Below, one piece after another: positions 518 through 46,285 of a stretch of DNA of 64,000 nt; within the stretch, counting starts at the first letter, position 1, and each line of letters starts with the position of its first letter. Location: IMG/VR virus record IMGVR_UViG_3300035210_000189, positions 88,441 to 152,440 of that record; one strand, given 5' to 3'. A model generated the notes under the pieces. That model made no database searches, was not told where the DNA came from, and worked only from the letters and a program-made list of their open reading frames with translations. This DNA is from a virus. The position numbers and the translations under genes are program-made.

Positions 518-681
518 AAACGAATTCGGAGCCTTCGCCATAGAGGGTTGGACAGCAGCGGTGTCGCGGGCAAGCTGTCACGAAAGGTGAGAATCAACTC
601 CCTTTCATAGTAATGAAGTGCATCAGAGATGAGTTTTTCTCTTGATTAAAACGCTTGGGTGAAGCGGCCTTTGTTACGAAC
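518..681 (+). ncRNA. novel structured ncRNA, copy 1
   Basis: Follows promoter 480-508; four stem-loop domains; paralogous to 813-980 with compensatory changes. Confidence 0.7.
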
Positions 682-692
682 TTGATTGTCAA

Positions 693-762
693 TTAGCGAA
701 GGAATTATAGTCCTAGTGGCTATGATTAAAACGGTTAGGTGGACTGGCCTTCGTTAAGACCA
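693..762 (+). ncRNA. stand-alone copy of the GATTAAAAC three-way-junction domain
   Basis: TTAGCGAAGG/CCTTCGTTAA stem; inner ATTATAG/CTATGAT stem; TAAAA-CGGTT-AGGTG-GACTG. Confidence 0.65.
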
Positions 763-812
763 AATTAAAAGGTTGTTATTTACAGGTGGTTGATGTATAA
801 TAGCGGTCAGTT

Positions 813-980
813 AAACGAATACGGAGAACCACTTAAATGGTTCTGAATGGTAGCGGTGGTCGGGCGAGCCATTGTAAGAAGGAGAGGTGATTTCTTAGTC
901 CCTCTCTTAGCAACAAGGGCATTGTGGGTGCTGTTTTCCTCGATTAAAACGGTTGGGCGAACCGGCTCTTGTTGCAAACC
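813..980 (+). ncRNA. novel structured ncRNA, copy 2
   Basis: Follows promoter 773-801; same domain order as 518-681; terminator follows. Confidence 0.7.
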
Positions 981-991
981 CTATTCCAAAG

Positions 992-1016
992 AGTTGTCGA
1001 TGACAGCTTTTTTTCT
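992..1016 (+). terminator. intrinsic terminator
   Basis: AGTTGTC-GAT-GACAGCT followed by a T tract. Confidence 0.7.
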
Positions 1017-4925: not shown

Positions 4926-5564
4926 ATGACAACTGTACATGATTGTGTTAAAGATGCTATGATTAACTATAATTCAATTTTTGCCACTCGTTGGCATGTG
5001 CTTAAGCATGTATTCTTTTGCAAGGGGACAGGCTATCAATGGTCTGGCGACAGTATTTATTGCACAGCTCAAAGCTCTGATCGACGTTGGAAGGTAAGTC
5101 GCAAAGCACCACTTTCTGTTCGTGATTTCATGGTTTTTTTTGATGAACAAGAAAGTAAACGGAAAAATAATACAAATTATCCATTTCAAAAAGATGATGC
5201 TGTGGTTGCTTTGAATCGTAAATTTCTGGCGTTCCATGCTAGTTTCTTGGTTGAACATATAGATGAATTGGTTGATAGCCAGATTGCTATTACTGATGAT
5301 GATTTGCCTAAAAAAATTCACATTGATGGTGGCAATAGTTTGTTTTGGCATCCACCAGAACAAATGGCAAAAGATTGGCGAGACGCTTTGGTCGAGGTCG
5401 GTACCATTATGTTGGAACTTATCAAAAATCATTATGCTAATGGTGATGACAGTGATACGGCTATTTGGTCTTGCAACGTGACCAAGAAAACTTACTTTCA
5501 AATGAAAGAACACGTTGAGTTGGTCAAAACAAAACAATATAAAGCCAAAAAGAAAAAAGCTTAA
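4926..5564 (+). CDS. hypothetical protein (paralog of 4336-4920)
   Basis: Starts 5 nt after the paralog; terminator follows. Confidence 0.7.
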   Translation: MTTVHDCVKDAMINYNSIFATRWHVLKHVFFCKGTGYQWSGDSIYCTAQSSDRRWKVSRKAPLSVRDFMVFFDEQESKRKNNTNYPFQKDDAVVALNRKFLAFHASFLVEHIDELVDSQIAITDDDLPKKIHIDGGNSLFWHPPEQMAKDWRDALVEVGTIMLELIKNHYANGDDSDTAIWSCNVTKKTYFQMKEHVELVKTKQYKAKKKKA

Positions 5565-22621: not shown

Positions 22622-23068
22622 TTAACTAACGACTTTTTGAGACTTGCGAAGTTCTTTCAGTTTATGCTCAATCTTGCCTTTTTCGAAATTACAATCCATG
22701 CACATCGTTTGTGTATTGGCGATATTGTCAGCCCCACCCAGAGAACGAGCTAAAATGTGATCATGCGTCATTAATACTTGTTGTCCATTATCACGAACAG
22801 CCCACAAGTTAATATGATACTTTGCATCCATATGATGTCGTTCCATTGCAAAGAATGCACCCTTAACACCACAATCAACACATTCGATACCATGTGTTGC
22901 AAATGTGCGAAGACGAAGTGAAGACAGTTTAATTGGTTCGCCATCAAAAGAAATACGTTTATCACGCTCTTTGTATTCAATCCCAGTAGAACCGTCATTG
23001 TGTTCTCGGATAGCTTTGAGTGTTTTTTCAATGTCGCACTTTTTCAGTCGAACATAGTTAGTAGCCAT
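22622..23068 (-). CDS. HNH endonuclease-family protein
   Basis: CVDC...THDHILARSLGGADNIANTQTMCMDCN. Confidence 0.85.
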   Translation of the reverse strand: MATNYVRLKKCDIEKTLKAIREHNDGSTGIEYKERDKRISFDGEPIKLSSLRLRTFATHGIECVDCGVKGAFFAMERHHMDAKYHINLWAVRDNGQQVLMTHDHILARSLGGADNIANTQTMCMDCNFEKGKIEHKLKELRKSQKVVS

Positions 23069-23166
23069 GAATTGTGTTCCTTTAATTTGTTCAATTAAAC
23101 AATTATAACAAAAAACTGGCCGTTAAGCCAGTGATTAATGAACAAAAAATCGCCATCAGGCGACTT

Positions 23167-23514
23167 TTAAGGTTTTGCTGGTTTCCATCTTGGATTTACA
23201 TCTTCAAGCTTACTTTCAGTGATAGTTTTAGGCTTGTAAGATTCAGTTATGAATGCACCCATTTCCTTGCCGTCAAGTTTGTAATTAGTTTTGTTCGCTA
23301 CTTTTTCAGCGTCAACTTTGTATTCTTGTCCTCTGAATTCAACTCTTGCAGCAACTACTGGACTTTTTTCATCGTATTTCAAGCCATCAATTTTGACTTT
23401 TCCTACTTCAATAGCACCTGTTTGAAGATCAACCAAGCATTCTTTCTGGATGTTTTTACCATCGGCTCTTGTTTCAACAAATGAAGCCTTCTTTTTAACG
23501 TCAGTCTCTTTCAT
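23167..23514 (-). CDS. hypothetical protein with basic KP tail
   Basis: 115 aa; ends RWKPAKP. Confidence 0.65.
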   Translation of the reverse strand: MKETDVKKKASFVETRADGKNIQKECLVDLQTGAIEVGKVKIDGLKYDEKSPVVAARVEFRGQEYKVDAEKVANKTNYKLDGKEMGAFITESYKPKTITESKLEDVNPRWKPAKP

Positions 23515-38255: not shown

Positions 38256-38918
38256 CTATATGTTAGCAAGTAATATGAAGGGTGAAAGTAGTATTCCACC
38301 AACCACCATAGCAACGCCTATAAAATAATAAGGTAATGACGCTTTCCAAGATTCTATTTTGTATAAAAATTTATCAATATAGCTGGCTTCAGCCGTAATT
38401 TTATAACTGTACATATTTGGCATAGTTTTATAGCACTCATTTACAGTAATAAAAAAGCTATCGTTTATATTATTTATTTGTTTTAATGTATCATCGTAAT
38501 TATTTTTACACTCTTCTAGATTTTCATTTTCATAATGATATTTCAGTTTAACTATATTTCCAGCCAATGTTTCAGTTGTTATAGTTTTTGAGTTTTTATG
38601 ATAGTTAGAAGAATTGAAACCAATGGAACTGTTGAATCTATTACCGCTACCTTCTCCAGCAGTAGTCCCAACATGGACAAAAAAATTAAAAGTTAACATC
38701 CATATTAATATTGCTATTTTTGTTTTTTTAAAGGATGAAAAGAAACTGTCTAAAAAAATTACAAATGGTCTTAATGTAAATCGGTAAGTATTGTATATTA
38801 TCTTTACACATATAAATTCAAATACATTATAAAATAAATCCCATAATCCCAACCTGTCTAATGATTTACCAACATCAGCAGTTAAGATCTCTTTTATTTT
38901 ATTTATTATTTTTTTCAT
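38256..38918 (-). CDS. membrane protein
   Basis: TM segments; paralogous C-terminal half. Confidence 0.65.
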   Translation of the reverse strand: MKKIINKIKEILTADVGKSLDRLGLWDLFYNVFEFICVKIIYNTYRFTLRPFVIFLDSFFSSFKKTKIAILIWMLTFNFFVHVGTTAGEGSGNRFNSSIGFNSSNYHKNSKTITTETLAGNIVKLKYHYENENLEECKNNYDDTLKQINNINDSFFITVNECYKTMPNMYSYKITAEASYIDKFLYKIESWKASLPYYFIGVAMVVGGILLSPFILLANI

Positions 38919-39889
38919 GGTTTTAAACTCGTTTTAGGTTTAATTTTGTTTTCCAATGGTGGATCTACTTCAATAGCTACTTCTGGCGTTGGTTTACTAT
39001 TTAACTTCTCTAACAACTTTACTGTGTAATAAGCATCATTCCCACTGTTGTGCAGTTCTTTCTTTGTATACTCTATTCCATATTCAGTTAAGAGTTCATG
39101 AAGGGGTTTTTGTTTACCGTGAAATGTTTGTGTATCCAAAATATTTAATTGACTGTAATCATCAAGCCATATGCCATGAATGTTAAATAATTTGATGTCT
39201 TCTTGATGAGAGTGAAATAAAGCATAATCAGCAATGGATAATTGATTTTTAACAATATCTGTCATCTTGTCTAATGAGATAATTTCCGTTTCGCCATATC
39301 TAAATCTTTTTTGTAGGCTACTATCACTCTTGGTCTGGTAAGCCGTATCAATGAGATAATGTTTGGATATCATGTTGTCGCCTTGCTTAACGGTCATCCC
39401 CATTTCAGTAATCAACGACTTCTTATGAGAAAACTCAAAATCAATGGAGACAATTCTTTTCTGTTCTATGTCTTCTGGCATTTCTCTGAGGTGTTTATCT
39501 TTTAACGCTAGTCTTGATTTTTTAAGTCTATCTAACACTCTAATACTGTTGCCATCTTTCATTTTTTGTGAGATGGCTCTTTTAACATCAATTAAATTAT
39601 TTACTTTAAAGTGTTCCATTTCTTTGTATATATCTGGATTGGCTACACCCACTCTTTTTATTTTGAAGCCTCTTTCTAGTTTAATGGAACCTAATAAAAT
39701 TATTTTCTCAAAGTCATCTTGCGAGATATGAACTTCATCTGTTGCTTTCGGCAAATAAAGATTTTCAACATTGAGATTATTGAAAATATTCATGTCGCTG
39801 TAAAAAGCTAATATTTGTTTTTGAAACTTTGGATTCTTGGTAGTATTGATGAAAGCTTTGCGTATTTTGTTTGTACTGTAATAGTTCAT
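38915..39889 (-). CDS. DEDD-superfamily 3'-5' exonuclease-like protein
   Basis: VSIDFEF, H...D, ILDTQ, LHNSGNDAYYT. Confidence 0.75.
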   Translation of the reverse strand: MNYYSTNKIRKAFINTTKNPKFQKQILAFYSDMNIFNNLNVENLYLPKATDEVHISQDDFEKIILLGSIKLERGFKIKRVGVANPDIYKEMEHFKVNNLIDVKRAISQKMKDGNSIRVLDRLKKSRLALKDKHLREMPEDIEQKRIVSIDFEFSHKKSLITEMGMTVKQGDNMISKHYLIDTAYQTKSDSSLQKRFRYGETEIISLDKMTDIVKNQLSIADYALFHSHQEDIKLFNIHGIWLDDYSQLNILDTQTFHGKQKPLHELLTEYGIEYTKKELHNSGNDAYYTVKLLEKLNSKPTPEVAIEVDPPLENKIKPKTSLKP

Positions 39890-40029
39890 GTTTAAGTATA
39901 TATCTATTTGTTTATTACATTGTACCATTAAAGCTAAATAAGAAAAGTTGCGGATATTTTTTCGCATTTAATTCTTGCGTTTATTCTCATTATTTACTAT
40001 AATAATTTAATTATTTTTAGGAGTTCATC

Positions 40030-41025
40030 ATGTCAAAGATCTTAACTGGCGATAGGCCAACAGGTTCACTTCACCTTGGACATTTTGTAGGTTCGCTACG
40101 AAACCGAGTAGAACTGCAGTACCTGCACCAGCAAACGATCTTGATTGCTGACAATCAGGCATTGACTGACAACATGGGTAATCCTACCAAAGTGCGTGAT
40201 AACGTCATTGAAGTCGCCAAAGACTATCTGGCTTGTGGTATTGACCCGAATATGACTACGATTTGTGTTCAATCACATCTTCCAGCTATTGCCGAACTGA
40301 CTTTGTTGTATCTAAACCTTGTCACTGTCTCTCGCTTAGAACGGAATCCTACCATTCGTGATGAGATTAAAGCTAAAAATTTCGAACGCAGTATTCCAGC
40401 AGGGTTCTTAGCGTATCCCGTTGCACAAGCGGCAGATATCACAGCGTTCAAAGCTGACCTTGTTCCAGTCGGTGAAGACCAGCTTCCGTTAATTGAGCAA
40501 GCGAATGAGATTGTTCACAAGCTTAATACCCAGATAGGTTTTGAGATTGTACCTGCGATCAAAGCTCTTACATCGACAGTAGGACGACTGCCAAGCTTCG
40601 ATGGTAAGTCTAAAATGAGCAAATCGCTCGGTAATACTATTAATCTATACGCAAGCATGAAAGACATTCAAAAAGCCGTCAATTTGATGTTTACTGACAG
40701 CAATCACTTAAAGGTTGAAGATCCCGGCCAAGTAGAAGGTAACGTAGTGTTCACCTACCTTGATGCTTTCGATCCTGATGTTGATGAGGTGGCGAACCTT
40801 AAAGAGTTCTATCAACGTGGAGGGTTAGGTGATGGCACATTGAAAAAGCGTCTGGTTGGTGTTTTAGAAACGGTGATTGCTCCTATCAGAGAGAAACGTC
40901 TATTGTTGAATAACCAGCATGATTTTGTGCTTGATGTCTTGAAGCAGGGGACATTGAAAGCCTTAACAGAAACGAACCAGAACGTCAATGAAATTAAGGA
41001 CGCTTTTGGGTTTTTCAAGTTCTAA
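40030..41025 (+). CDS. trpS: tryptophanyl-tRNA synthetase
   Basis: TGDRPTGSLHLGH, YPVAQAADI, VPVGEDQ, KMSKS. Confidence 0.98.
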   Translation: MSKILTGDRPTGSLHLGHFVGSLRNRVELQYLHQQTILIADNQALTDNMGNPTKVRDNVIEVAKDYLACGIDPNMTTICVQSHLPAIAELTLLYLNLVTVSRLERNPTIRDEIKAKNFERSIPAGFLAYPVAQAADITAFKADLVPVGEDQLPLIEQANEIVHKLNTQIGFEIVPAIKALTSTVGRLPSFDGKSKMSKSLGNTINLYASMKDIQKAVNLMFTDSNHLKVEDPGQVEGNVVFTYLDAFDPDVDEVANLKEFYQRGGLGDGTLKKRLVGVLETVIAPIREKRLLLNNQHDFVLDVLKQGTLKALTETNQNVNEIKDAFGFFKF

Positions 41026-41138: not shown

Positions 41139-41482
41139 AAGTGCCCGAGGTGAACTACCGATGGAGTAAGTAATCAAATTAGAGAATGAGACTATTTAAT
41201 ATGATGATACTAGCTTTAAACTAAACATTAACCACTTGACAATTAGATAAGTGCCAGAGGTGAACTAGGAATGCCGTAATACACTAAAATTAGATAATTA
41301 AATTGATGATATAATATTAGAGTATAACAAACACATAAACATTCACTTTAAAATCGTTTAAAATGAAGTGCTCGGAGGTGAGCTGCCCATGCCGTAGTCA
41401 ACAACTATTAGATAATTAAACTTATTATAGATGATGATATTAGAATGGAAATGAATCAAGCGGTGCGGTTTTTTTAAGTGGC
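41139..41482 (+). repeat. three ~110-nt degenerate repeats, each with an SD-ATG-codon-stop minigene
   Basis: AAGTG at 41139, 41249, 41366 and 41476; ATGGAGTAA 41161, ATGCCGTAA 41271, ATGCCGTAG 41389, each 8 nt after GAGGTG. Confidence 0.85.
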
Positions 41483-44163: not shown

Positions 44164-44276
44164 ATTTTTGACAGCAACATTAAGAAATATGTTGCATTAA
44201 ACTCTAAAATTAGGTATTATGAAGATCTTAAATCAAACAACGCAATTTTATTAACTTACTTAAAGGAGAACTCATT

Positions 44277-44297
44277 ATGTCTAAATTTTTACGTTAA
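44277..44297 (+). CDS. leader mini-ORF MSKFLR
   Basis: AAAGGAG SD; ATG TCT AAA TTT TTA CGT TAA; 17 nt before the next ATG. Confidence 0.55.
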   Translation: MSKFLR

Positions 44298-44314
44298 TTT
44301 AGAGGACTTTAAAA

Positions 44315-44644
44315 ATGAGCAAAACAATCCGCCGCAAAAACGAGATGACCAATTTCGGTAAACTCTTCATGTTCAGCGAACGTGATTTGGACGAAAACGG
44401 ACTGATCGAATACCATTGGGATAAAGCCTATGTTGGCTTGACCTTGGAAGAAGCGAACATCAAACGCAAGCAGTGGTTCCATTCCTGCAATGGGCCACGG
44501 TTCGATTACTGCCCCGGCAAAGCTTACCGTCAGGAATACAGGGCGAAAAGCAAGCAACAACTCAGGGAGCAGTTGAACACCCTCGATGACTACGAGGCCG
44601 TAGCTATCGACAAGCTGTGCAACGATTGGCGTTTCTGGATGTGA
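44315..44644 (+). CDS. hypothetical protein (MSKTIRRK...)
   Basis: GAGGA SD; codon usage GC-richer than the neighbours; terminator follows. Confidence 0.8.
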   Translation: MSKTIRRKNEMTNFGKLFMFSERDLDENGLIEYHWDKAYVGLTLEEANIKRKQWFHSCNGPRFDYCPGKAYRQEYRAKSKQQLREQLNTLDDYEAVAIDKLCNDWRFWM

Positions 44645-44697
44645 TTAAAAGGAAGACCTTTTTCGAAAGGTCTTTTTTATTTCTAAGGATTTATAAA

Positions 44698-45117
44698 ATG
44701 AAGAAAATTAAGGTTTATCGGTTGGAAAATATCAATAATCTTGGGCCATTTAGAGGTGGTCACAGGAATGAAGCTAACCTCTTGAAAGGTCATTTCGGCA
44801 TTCGCAATTGTCTGATTGACTATAAAGTCATGAAACCTCGGATGTTTAAAAAATTTGCTAAGAATGGTTGGCGGTGTGCTTGGAGTGTGGAAGAAGACTT
44901 CGATAACTGGCTTAATGACCATGCTGCCTATTTTGAGTCGTTAGGCTATTTTAAAGTGGCTTATGAGGTGTCTCAATACAAACTCTGTGGCGATCAAAAG
45001 CTTTTTTATATTGATGAAAAACTAGATGAGTATGTTTACTGTGATGTTGTAGGTCATCAGGTCTTTTTCAATCCAAAAAATGCATCAAAACTTAAACCCA
45101 TTCATCTTAATGCTTGA
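44698..45117 (+). CDS. hypothetical phage-type protein (VYRLE...GPF)
   Basis: AAGGA SD. Confidence 0.65.
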   Translation: MKKIKVYRLENINNLGPFRGGHRNEANLLKGHFGIRNCLIDYKVMKPRMFKKFAKNGWRCAWSVEEDFDNWLNDHAAYFESLGYFKVAYEVSQYKLCGDQKLFYIDEKLDEYVYCDVVGHQVFFNPKNASKLKPIHLNA

Positions 45118-45265
45118 CCTTATTGTCAGGTTTCTCTATAATAGTTGTTTTGAAATCAACTATATATAAGGAGGACTTATGAGTGGAGATGCGTCTTAAA
45201 TCATAGCTACATTTATATTTGTTAACTGGCACTGAATGGTTTTCCATTCGGTGTTTTTCTTATTT
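45114..45265 (+). promoter_or_regulatory. frr leader: promoter, uORF MSGDAS (45179-45199), terminator-like hairpin
   Basis: TTGACC-17-TATAAT; AAGGAGG SD; 12-bp hairpin 45228-45255 running into TTTTTCTTATTT. Confidence 0.65.
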
Positions 45266-45287
45266 GTTTAATTTAAAGGAACTTATC

Positions 45288-45842
45288 ATGACTAATGTAA
45301 AAAAAGAAACACAAAAAGAATTATCAAAAGCCATTGAGTCGTTGAAAATTACATTGGCGAAAATTCGAACAGGTCGAGCACATCCCAGCTTACTGGATTC
45401 AGTCATTGTTGAACACCAGAATACAAAATCACCACTTAAACAAATGGCAACTATCGTTGTAGAAGACGCTCGCACACTCAAAGTAGTGGCATTTGACCCC
45501 AAATCAGTAGGAGCTATCACAAAGTCTATCTTGAACGCTGGACTAGGCTTAAATCCTTCAAATACTGGCACCAACATTTATGTTCCTCTACCTGCACTGA
45601 CAGAAGAAACACGCAAAATGTATATCAAGCAGTTACGTCAGAATATTGAAAGTGCTCGCATTGTTGTTCGTAATCTTCGTAGAGATGCTTTCACTGCCTA
45701 TAAGAAACAATTGAAGAATAAAGAAATCAACGAAAACGATGAAAAACGATTGAGTAATTCTATTCAGAAAGACGTTGATGAGACGATGGCTATTATTGAT
45801 GGACTATTAACTCAAAAAGAAAAAGAAATCATGGCTATTTAA
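45288..45842 (+). CDS. frr: ribosome recycling factor
   Basis: KIRTGRAHPS, LGLNP, PALTEETRK, VRNLRRDA; 184 aa. Confidence 0.97.
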   Translation: MTNVKKETQKELSKAIESLKITLAKIRTGRAHPSLLDSVIVEHQNTKSPLKQMATIVVEDARTLKVVAFDPKSVGAITKSILNAGLGLNPSNTGTNIYVPLPALTEETRKMYIKQLRQNIESARIVVRNLRRDAFTAYKKQLKNKEINENDEKRLSNSIQKDVDETMAIIDGLLTQKEKEIMAI

Positions 45843-45879
45843 TATTGACTTTTTAAGTGTTATTTGTTATAATCTCATA

Positions 45880-46285
45880 TTATTACGGTTATAAAAGATT
45901 TCAGTAATAGCTCCTGCGTGTGTTATTACTGGATGTGGAAAGCGGACGACAGCTAACAGTTTGGCCTTGAATTCTGTGTTGTTTTGCTTAAAAAATCAAA
46001 GGTAGTGTTCTGCTAAGGGATCTTTTGCAGAGGACATGAGCTTAAAAATGAGATTATGCACAGAAAGATGTGTAGTCAAAAAAAGACCGGCGAAGTGAGT
46101 TTAGTTCAGACAACCTTCGTGACATTACCCCGAGCTTTCCTAATTAAAAAGGAACCTCAACTGGATAATACAACTGAATTGTTTCCACCATGCAGGTTGT
46201 GTGTCAGGTCTTTACCAAATGGCTTTCATCGCCGCCTGACCCCTTATTTAAAAAGAAGGCTACTATTCATTTAGTGGCCTTTTTT
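45880..46285 (+). ncRNA. candidate ~400-nt structured ncRNA
   Basis: Own TTGACT/TATAAT promoter at about 45846-45873; terminator at 46256-46285; long hairpins; no SD-supported ORF. Confidence 0.5.

Follow-up and report, generated by a model that had tools for sequence, protein, structure and literature searches.

A phage-borne ribosome recycling factor gene lies behind a conserved mini-ORF and terminator with the anatomy of an attenuator

The frr locus and its genomic setting

The window (the whole 64-kb stretch of DNA analysed here) forms the last 64 kb of a 152,440-base IMG/VR virus record that is classed as 'provirus', is about 55% complete and has a GC content of 0.34. Because this record carries a T4-type RNA ligase, a TrpRS/TyrRS-like gene and otherwise mainly ORFans, the preliminary description of its frr gene (Table 1) as element-encoded is borne out. 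A T4-type RNA ligase 1 (Pfam E 1.3e-30) and a DEDDh exonuclease-like protein were recognised (G000:C1:64139-65293; window 38918-39967), the other large ORFs being family-less, and no Pth, RF or IF3 gene was found in the 152-kb record, itself a fragment of the element. The frr locus and its neighbours are also present on metagenome contigs of 0.83-1.86 Mb (L008, 1.28 Mb; L009, 1.86 Mb; the contig bearing P0001, 835 kb), and IMG/VR excises 'proviruses' of 150-190 kb from such large contigs. To our knowledge, contigs of this size far exceed any described phage genome, and the element may be either integrated in a cell genome or itself as large as these contigs.

The frr product matches the Pfam RRF family over its full length (residues 20-182 of 184; E 6.6e-52, 176.1 bits versus a cut-off of 29.7) and its alignment to E. 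coli RRF (1EK8; E 2e-47) contains no gaps. The arginines aligned to E. coli R110, R129 and R132, which we take to be the ribosome-binding arginines of domain I, are kept (LTEETRKMY versus LTEERRKDL; VRNLRRDA versus VRNVRRDA). By these alignments the product is assigned as a ribosome recycling factor, which may be active in recycling with host EF-G. It falls in a tight clade (82-100% identity, one member at 69%), and a gap lies between this clade and cellular RRFs, which reach 54% at most; the nearest of them are Pseudomonadales-like (49-54%). RRF has been listed among the translation genes of huge phages (Al-Shayeb et al. 2020, PMC7162821), a likeness to the present element in that a very large phage carries RRF among its translation genes; that report gives a gene listing alone, and no leader or regulation is described there.

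Table 1. Features of the frr locus in window coordinates, with block identities between the window-type and L003-type clades
Feature	Position	Strand	Description	Identity between clades
TrpRS/TyrRS-like gene	40030-41025		translation-island neighbour of frr	
2-codon minigene array	41141-41400		3.8 kb upstream of frr leader	
sigma70-type promoter	45114..45142	+	TTGACC-17-TATAAT, 11/12 matches; -35 TTGACC 45114-45119, spacing 17 bp, -10 TATAAT 45137-45142	
5' leader				8-12/26
uORF Shine-Dalgarno	45168..45174	+	AAGGAGG, 4 nt before ATG	
6-codon uORF	45179..45199	+	ATG AGT GGA GAT GCG TCT TAA (MSGDAS)	14-15/18
Spacer	45200..45228	+	28-29 nt here, from uORF stop to stem	12-14/29 (0.41-0.48)
Terminator hairpin	45228-45255, core 45229..45254	+	11-12 pairs including G-U, loop 3-4 nt	21-22/26; differences in loop and compensating pairs
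U-tract	45255..45265	+	TTTTCTTATTT, directly after stem	11/11
frr Shine-Dalgarno	45275..45281	+	AAAGGAA; AAAGG invariant across leaders	
frr	45288..45842	+	ribosome recycling factor, 184 aa, Pfam PF01765	
frr 4-fold degenerate sites				0.37-0.46
Promoter-to-terminator RNA unit	45845-46285		promoter TTGACT-17-TATAAT with TG, 45845-73; terminator 46252-85	

All parts named in the preliminary description, that is the promoter, the AAGGAGG, the MSGDAS uORF, a 28-nt gap, the hairpin with its U-rich tail and frr with its own Shine-Dalgarno sequence, lie where it had placed them. The promoter, whose -35 element at 45114 overlaps the stop codon of the upstream ORF (44617-45117), is the best of 65 promoter-like matches in the interval from 40 to 52 kb; its position is kept in relatives (as TTGACC/TATAAT or TTGCAA/TATTAT), and transcription is predicted to start at about 45149. 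The hairpin core (-15.6 kcal/mol) ranks with the record's most stable terminator stems, and 22 nt separate the U-tract from the ATG of frr. On the basis that a promoter scan of 40-52 kb gave no promoter-like site between the hairpin and frr, the gene would have to be transcribed through the hairpin. Usual terminators of this genome have AAG...CTT stems and T6-T9 runs, follow a stop codon by 0-30 nt and have the next promoter behind them; at frr the order is gene, promoter, Shine-Dalgarno sequence with uORF, terminator, frr. The order promoter, translated mini-ORF, intrinsic terminator and gene is the anatomy of a leader-peptide attenuator, and the dependence of frr on read-through thus makes this leader an attenuator by anatomy.

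The surroundings of frr form a translation island made up of the synthetase-like gene, the minigene array, frr itself and the RNA gene at 45845-46285. The array consists of three repeats, each with GAGGTGA, 8 nt and ATG-X-stop (encoding ME, MP and MP), and in the relative L009 a homologous array (5180-5480; ATG-TAA, ATG-CAG-ATT-TAA, ATG-CAG-AAC-TAA) adjoins the frr leader on its upstream side; the link between leader and array is one of neighbourhood only. Downstream of frr, the promoter-to-terminator unit has no credible ORF, and no Rfam match was found for its RNA. Of the 1.4 kb compared, contigs from a wastewater run and from two freshwater metatranscriptome studies cover hardly more than 45910-46205, one 267-nt contig having a depth of 140, which suggests that the unit encodes an abundant RNA of about 300 nt. 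Seven RNA runs share small parts of the stretch; the four that were compared, as contigs, have their coverage outside 45041-45369, and such contigs by nature cannot reveal 3' ends.

Conservation of the leader among relatives

We aligned 14 distinct leaders, namely that of the window and 13 from IMG/VR, JGI, ENA and Logan contigs whose RRFs are 82-97% identical, and the Shine-Dalgarno sequence, uORF, spacer, hairpin and U-tract are kept in all of them. By the comparison of the two main clades (Table 1), neutral sites between them are near saturation. Since the leader arrangement is kept in 14 leaders despite an identity of only 0.37-0.48 at flanking and synonymous positions, it is, on this evidence, more than chance.

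The uORF retains an invariant AGGAGG in the arrangement AGGAGG-N4-5-ATG (14/14) and encodes peptides of the family M-[S/G]-[G/S]-D-A-S-UAA. Five synonymous swaps (AGT/TCT, GGA/GGC, AGC/AGT, GCG/GCT and TCT/TCG) were recorded, the first of which is a switch between serine codon families; replacements are limited to Gly/Ser at positions 2 and 3, and D-A-S varies synonymously only. As GCG/GCT and TCT/TCG would alter the amino acid if read in the overlapping +1 frame, frame 0 is the selected frame, and this substitution pattern indicates that the uORF is selected at the peptide level. An internal control for peptide conservation can be found in a second leader mini-ORF of the same genome (AAAGGAG; MSKFLR-stop, 44277-44297), which lies with a promoter in 44192-44314 and ends 17 nt before a 109-aa gene at 44315: in the relative L009 its position and Shine-Dalgarno sequence are kept, and peptide and length are changed (MSII-stop).

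Conservation of the hairpin is of a different kind, with 98.7% of stem cells paired across the leaders, two pairs that change on both sides (G-C / G-U / A-U) and one that runs through U-G, U-A and C-G, a pattern that points to selection at the level of structure. The U-tract is identical in 13 of the 14 leaders, the exception, L107, having TTTTATTATTT. Conservation of the distance between uORF and hairpin in homologues, a point raised in the preliminary description, was confirmed, for the spacing is 27, 28 or 29 nt in 14/14 leaders despite visible indels. Within the spacer, TCATA (45201-45205), 2 nt after the uORF stop, is invariant in 14/14 and the rest drifts freely. This motif supplies a +1-frame stop (TAG/TAA) and could also pair with the UAUG(A) of the start codon; covariation support for either reading was absent among the 14 leaders. 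A +1-frame mini-ORF (ATG45189..TAG45206, MRLKS) that would explain TCATA was discarded, as changes that are synonymous in frame 0 are replacements in it.

A covariance model built on the leader picked up exactly one copy per record in four virus records, each time in front of frr, and no Rfam family matched the leader at E values up to 10. Pattern scans of viral contigs for further copies returned three known relatives and two chance matches (L102 and L103); another 60 pattern matches in genome contigs were rejected by the covariance model and are due to chance, and a metagenome protein scan for more relatives or hosts gave nothing new. Upstream context varies among the relatives and the leader-frr pair stays joined. 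Taken as a whole, these comparisons indicate that the leader is real, selected and specific to frr.

On the other hand, a phage RRF gene can do without it. In the relative whose RRF is 69% identical (L012), the order is terminator, promoter, Shine-Dalgarno sequence and frr, with no uORF. There, frr is preceded by a cluster of RNA genes and driven from a plain promoter; some 900 nt of sequence ahead of it (L012 3170-4000) contain tRNA-Leu(AAG) and homologues of two structured RNAs of the element, corresponding to G000 22997-23307 (68% over 317 nt) and to the structured RNAs of window 627-994. Nor was a leader of this type found before frr in phage Phosso, an unrelated jumbo phage, and the device is therefore dispensable for a phage frr. 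Elsewhere in the present genome, 7 kb before the window (G000:C1:81340-81520), a promoter is followed by a tRNA-like RNA (T-arm GGGGTTCGAAGCCCC), a T9 terminator, GGAG and a 213-aa gene whose ATG (G000 81515) lies 5 nt behind the terminator of the tRNA-like gene. By this layout, the 213-aa gene can presumably be reached by terminator read-through only, and expression by read-through may be a habit of this phage.

Geometry of the leader and comparison with known attenuators

A ribosome with the UAA of the uORF in its A site protects the transcript to about 45210, the stem starts at 45228/9 and about 18 nt are left free. A ribosome at the UAA thus falls short of the stem, and occlusion of the MsrDL type is excluded by geometry. 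Single-sequence folds and RNAalifold on 10 leaders gave no conserved antiterminator or alternative pairing, nor a conserved pause signal. What RNAalifold returned besides the terminator was a weak SD:GCGUCUUA pairing, drawn from columns that do not vary in those 10 leaders; L108 alters the 3' partner of the SD:GCGUCUUA pairing from TCT to TCG. Several further candidates were dismissed. Pairing of the uORF with either stem arm is, on checking by hand, not kept between the clades. The U-tract (UUUUCUUAUUU) was considered as an anti-SD that would pair with the Shine-Dalgarno sequence of the uORF or of frr, but L107 has a C->A change there and the SD-proximal segment deleted. A second spacer mini-ORF, either ATG-TAA or six codons that end within the stem, occurs in the L003-type clade only. 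In the window, frame 0 stays open for 11 codons after the UAA, up to a TGA inside the 5' arm, and in 9 of 10 leaders the frame from the UAA reaches or traverses the hairpin without a stop; with shuffled spacers remaining open in about 0.5 of cases each, these open frames are compatible with in-frame reading into the hairpin but no better than chance.

Judged by its sequence, then, the leader has an RBS-bearing short ORF before the gene and an intrinsic terminator with no promoter behind it, and it lacks two features that define known attenuators, an exclusive antiterminator and a terminator that a ribosome at the stop would occlude directly. Of what marks the MsrDL type, likewise, neither a stalled ribosome over the 5' half of the terminator nor homology of peptide or RNA is apparent. 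Among ribosome-based mechanisms, this geometry would leave only those in which ribosomes move beyond the stop codon.

The closest parallel to the leader is msrDL-msrD of the mefA/msrD operon (Fostier et al. 2023, PMC10314930), where a leader of six codons, closed by UAA, likewise follows a strong RBS and precedes a Rho-independent terminator. In both, the regulated gene encodes a factor that acts on the ribosome and whose product is expected to relieve the sensed state, and in both, amino acids rather than codons would matter, as shown for MsrDL (PMC10314930) and as inferred for the frr uORF from its synonymous changes. However, the ribosome stalled at the MsrDL leader stop must cover the 5' half of the terminator (PMC10314930), whereas in the frr leader the stop lies 27-29 nt upstream of the hairpin, out of the ribosome's reach; moreover, the peptides are unrelated (MSGDAS versus MYLIFM), the setting is a phage, and the regulated gene encodes RRF rather than an ABC-F protein. 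With trpL, hisL, pheL and pheM-pheST the frr leader shares the order promoter, translated leader, intrinsic terminator and structural gene, with read-through as the regulated step, but it is far shorter and has no regulatory codon runs, no 1:2 / 2:3 / 3:4 pairings and no evident pause hairpin. Like attenuators of the pyrBI coupling type, it lacks an antiterminator, and the decision would hinge on a ribosome on the hairpin RNA at the moment when the polymerase meets the U-tract. The pyrBI leader ORF runs through the terminator, whereas the frr uORF ends before it, which leaves a role only for ribosomes that ignore its stop or stay on beyond it. In prfB (+1 frameshift at an in-frame UGA) and infC (AUU start), the step of translation that a factor carries out serves as sensor for its synthesis, as it would in the frr leader; these act in the coding frame at translation, whereas the frr leader would act on transcription via a separate mini-ORF.

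Recycling failure as a candidate signal, and alternative readings

We propose a translated-leader transcription attenuator of the phage frr: transcripts starting at about 45149 would be loaded with a ribosome at the strong Shine-Dalgarno sequence, which would make M-S-G-D-A-S, and that by default the hairpin and U-tract would stop RNA polymerase at about 45260-45265, yielding a leader RNA of about 115 nt, with frr being made solely from read-through transcripts. Given the lack of an alternative fold and the 27-29 nt between uORF stop and hairpin, a ribosome that finishes the uORF and departs in the normal way would not interfere with the hairpin, and read-through would rise only when ribosomes proceed past the UAA into it. 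The best single candidate for such a signal would be the unrecycled post-termination ribosome under RRF shortage: less RRF would give more read-through and hence more RRF, a negative feedback on recycling. That the leader gates frr by termination at the hairpin and read-through has, in our view, a probability of roughly three in four. That read-through is modulated through a ribosome on the uORF is the central but more tentative step, for which we would offer slightly less than even odds, and that the signal is RRF shortage seems rather unlikely when taken as a claim of its own.

The preliminary description had gone further in suggesting a candidate recycling-sensing attenuator here. The attenuator anatomy, the selection on the leader, the lack of a separate frr promoter and a geometry that calls for ribosomes beyond the stop stand on the side of that proposal, and a conserved antiterminator or pause element was not found. 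A dedicated recycling sensor, in which post-termination ribosomes would cross the 27-29 nt to the hairpin, suppress termination and switch on frr, possibly acting jointly with the element's 2-codon minigene arrays, is in our view doubtful. The main argument for this sensor is the logic between gene and signal, in which less recycling would call up more RRF. Failure of recycling fits the notion of ribosomes past the stop and is not proven by that fit, and the literature is divided on what unrecycled ribosomes do after a stop codon: upon loss of RRF, post-termination 70S ribosomes diffuse into 3' UTRs slowly ('over time') and without re-initiation (PMC7538156), whereas in the system of Kaji ribosomes short of RRF read on in frame with the UAA (PMC9955659). 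By an estimate from textbook rates, RNA polymerase covers the 66 nt between uORF stop and U-tract in about 1-2 s, and post-termination diffusion may be too slow to catch it unless the polymerase pauses. Such slow diffusion set against a transit of 1-2 s with no recognisable pause counts against a recycling sensor, as does the lack of the leader in a related (L012) and an unrelated (Phosso) phage.

The chief rival, and a serious one, is a constitutive damper, i.e. a leaky terminator that lets a low, fixed proportion of the transcripts begun at a strong early promoter go on into frr, with nothing being sensed and with the mini-ORF serving the RNA, for example through a ribosome at the 5' end that shields it from decay or Rho; we accord it a real, if minority, chance. 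It is consistent with a leader that has no alternative structure and whose uORF stop lies far from the hairpin, as expected if ribosomes should not interfere, and with the recurrence in this genome both of leader mini-ORFs (44277) and of a gene directly behind a terminator (G000 81515). The U-tract, moreover, is interrupted by C/A, unlike the T6-T9 runs of end-of-gene terminators, which fits partial termination. Yet a mini-ORF that merely loads ribosomes needs no fixed peptide, whereas D-A-S is kept through synonymous changes and the 44277 mini-ORF, unlike the frr uORF, changes both peptide and length; a spacer held at 27-29 nt and an invariant TCATA amid neutral sequence are likewise unexplained by a constitutive damper. 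It is improbable that the leader transcript itself is the product, either as a small RNA (about 115 nt) or as a minigene under heavy translation, with read-through into frr being incidental. Lambda bar minigenes tie up ribosomes or peptidyl-tRNA and RRF stimulates peptidyl-tRNA drop-off on short ORFs, and in keeping with such a product the leader runs from a promoter to a terminator of its own, as do the many small RNA genes found in the element, and a 2-codon minigene array lies 3.8 kb upstream of it (in relatives directly upstream, L009 5180-5480). However, the unit is found only and always joined to frr, which has no other promoter, this pair stays together where the upstream context varies, and a Pth gene is absent from the 152-kb record (a fragment).

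Arrest of the MsrDL or TnaC type, in which M-S-G-D-A-S would stall the ribosome at the UAA when a drug or metabolite is present or release factor is short and the stalled ribosome would block the terminator, has a slimmer chance still. It would agree with the conservation of the uORF peptide at the amino-acid level and with its penultimate Ala, the residue that chloramphenicol and linezolid arrest favours at this position. In msrDL-msrD, too, six leader codons and a UAA stop are followed by an intrinsic terminator and a translation-factor gene (PMC10314930). Against this, the ribosome edge (about 45210) is about 18 nt short of the stem (45228/9), there is no antiterminator to relay a signal, and induction of RRF would not relieve blocked peptide release. 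Least probable of all, and by a reading of the leader that we consider very hard to sustain, the hairpin would be a 5' stabiliser or processing landmark, the spacer being cut and the stem-loop capping and protecting the frr mRNA: the spacer is indeed AU-rich, single-stranded and directly before a stable stem, but a GC-rich stem that passes straight into an almost invariant U-run is what marks an intrinsic terminator, and such a role gives no reason for a conserved uORF peptide.

Feedback control or an autoregulatory circuit of this kind for frr or RRF was not described in the literature searched. If the recycling sensor were true, the fourth step of translation would have its first known autoregulatory circuit, and the leader would be a natural reporter for unrecycled ribosomes; if the terminator is a constitutive damper only, the leader would be an ordinary piece of phage gene-expression design. 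The leader is a compact, evolution-tested cassette of 140 nt whose only plausible ribosome-dependent mode needs ribosomes past the stop codon, so that it would make the fate of unrecycled ribosomes directly testable with a simple reporter. With RRF, a tRNA synthetase, tRNA-like RNAs, minigene arrays and a T4-type RNA ligase all carried by this giant phage lineage, it appears to manage the translation cycle of its host stepwise.
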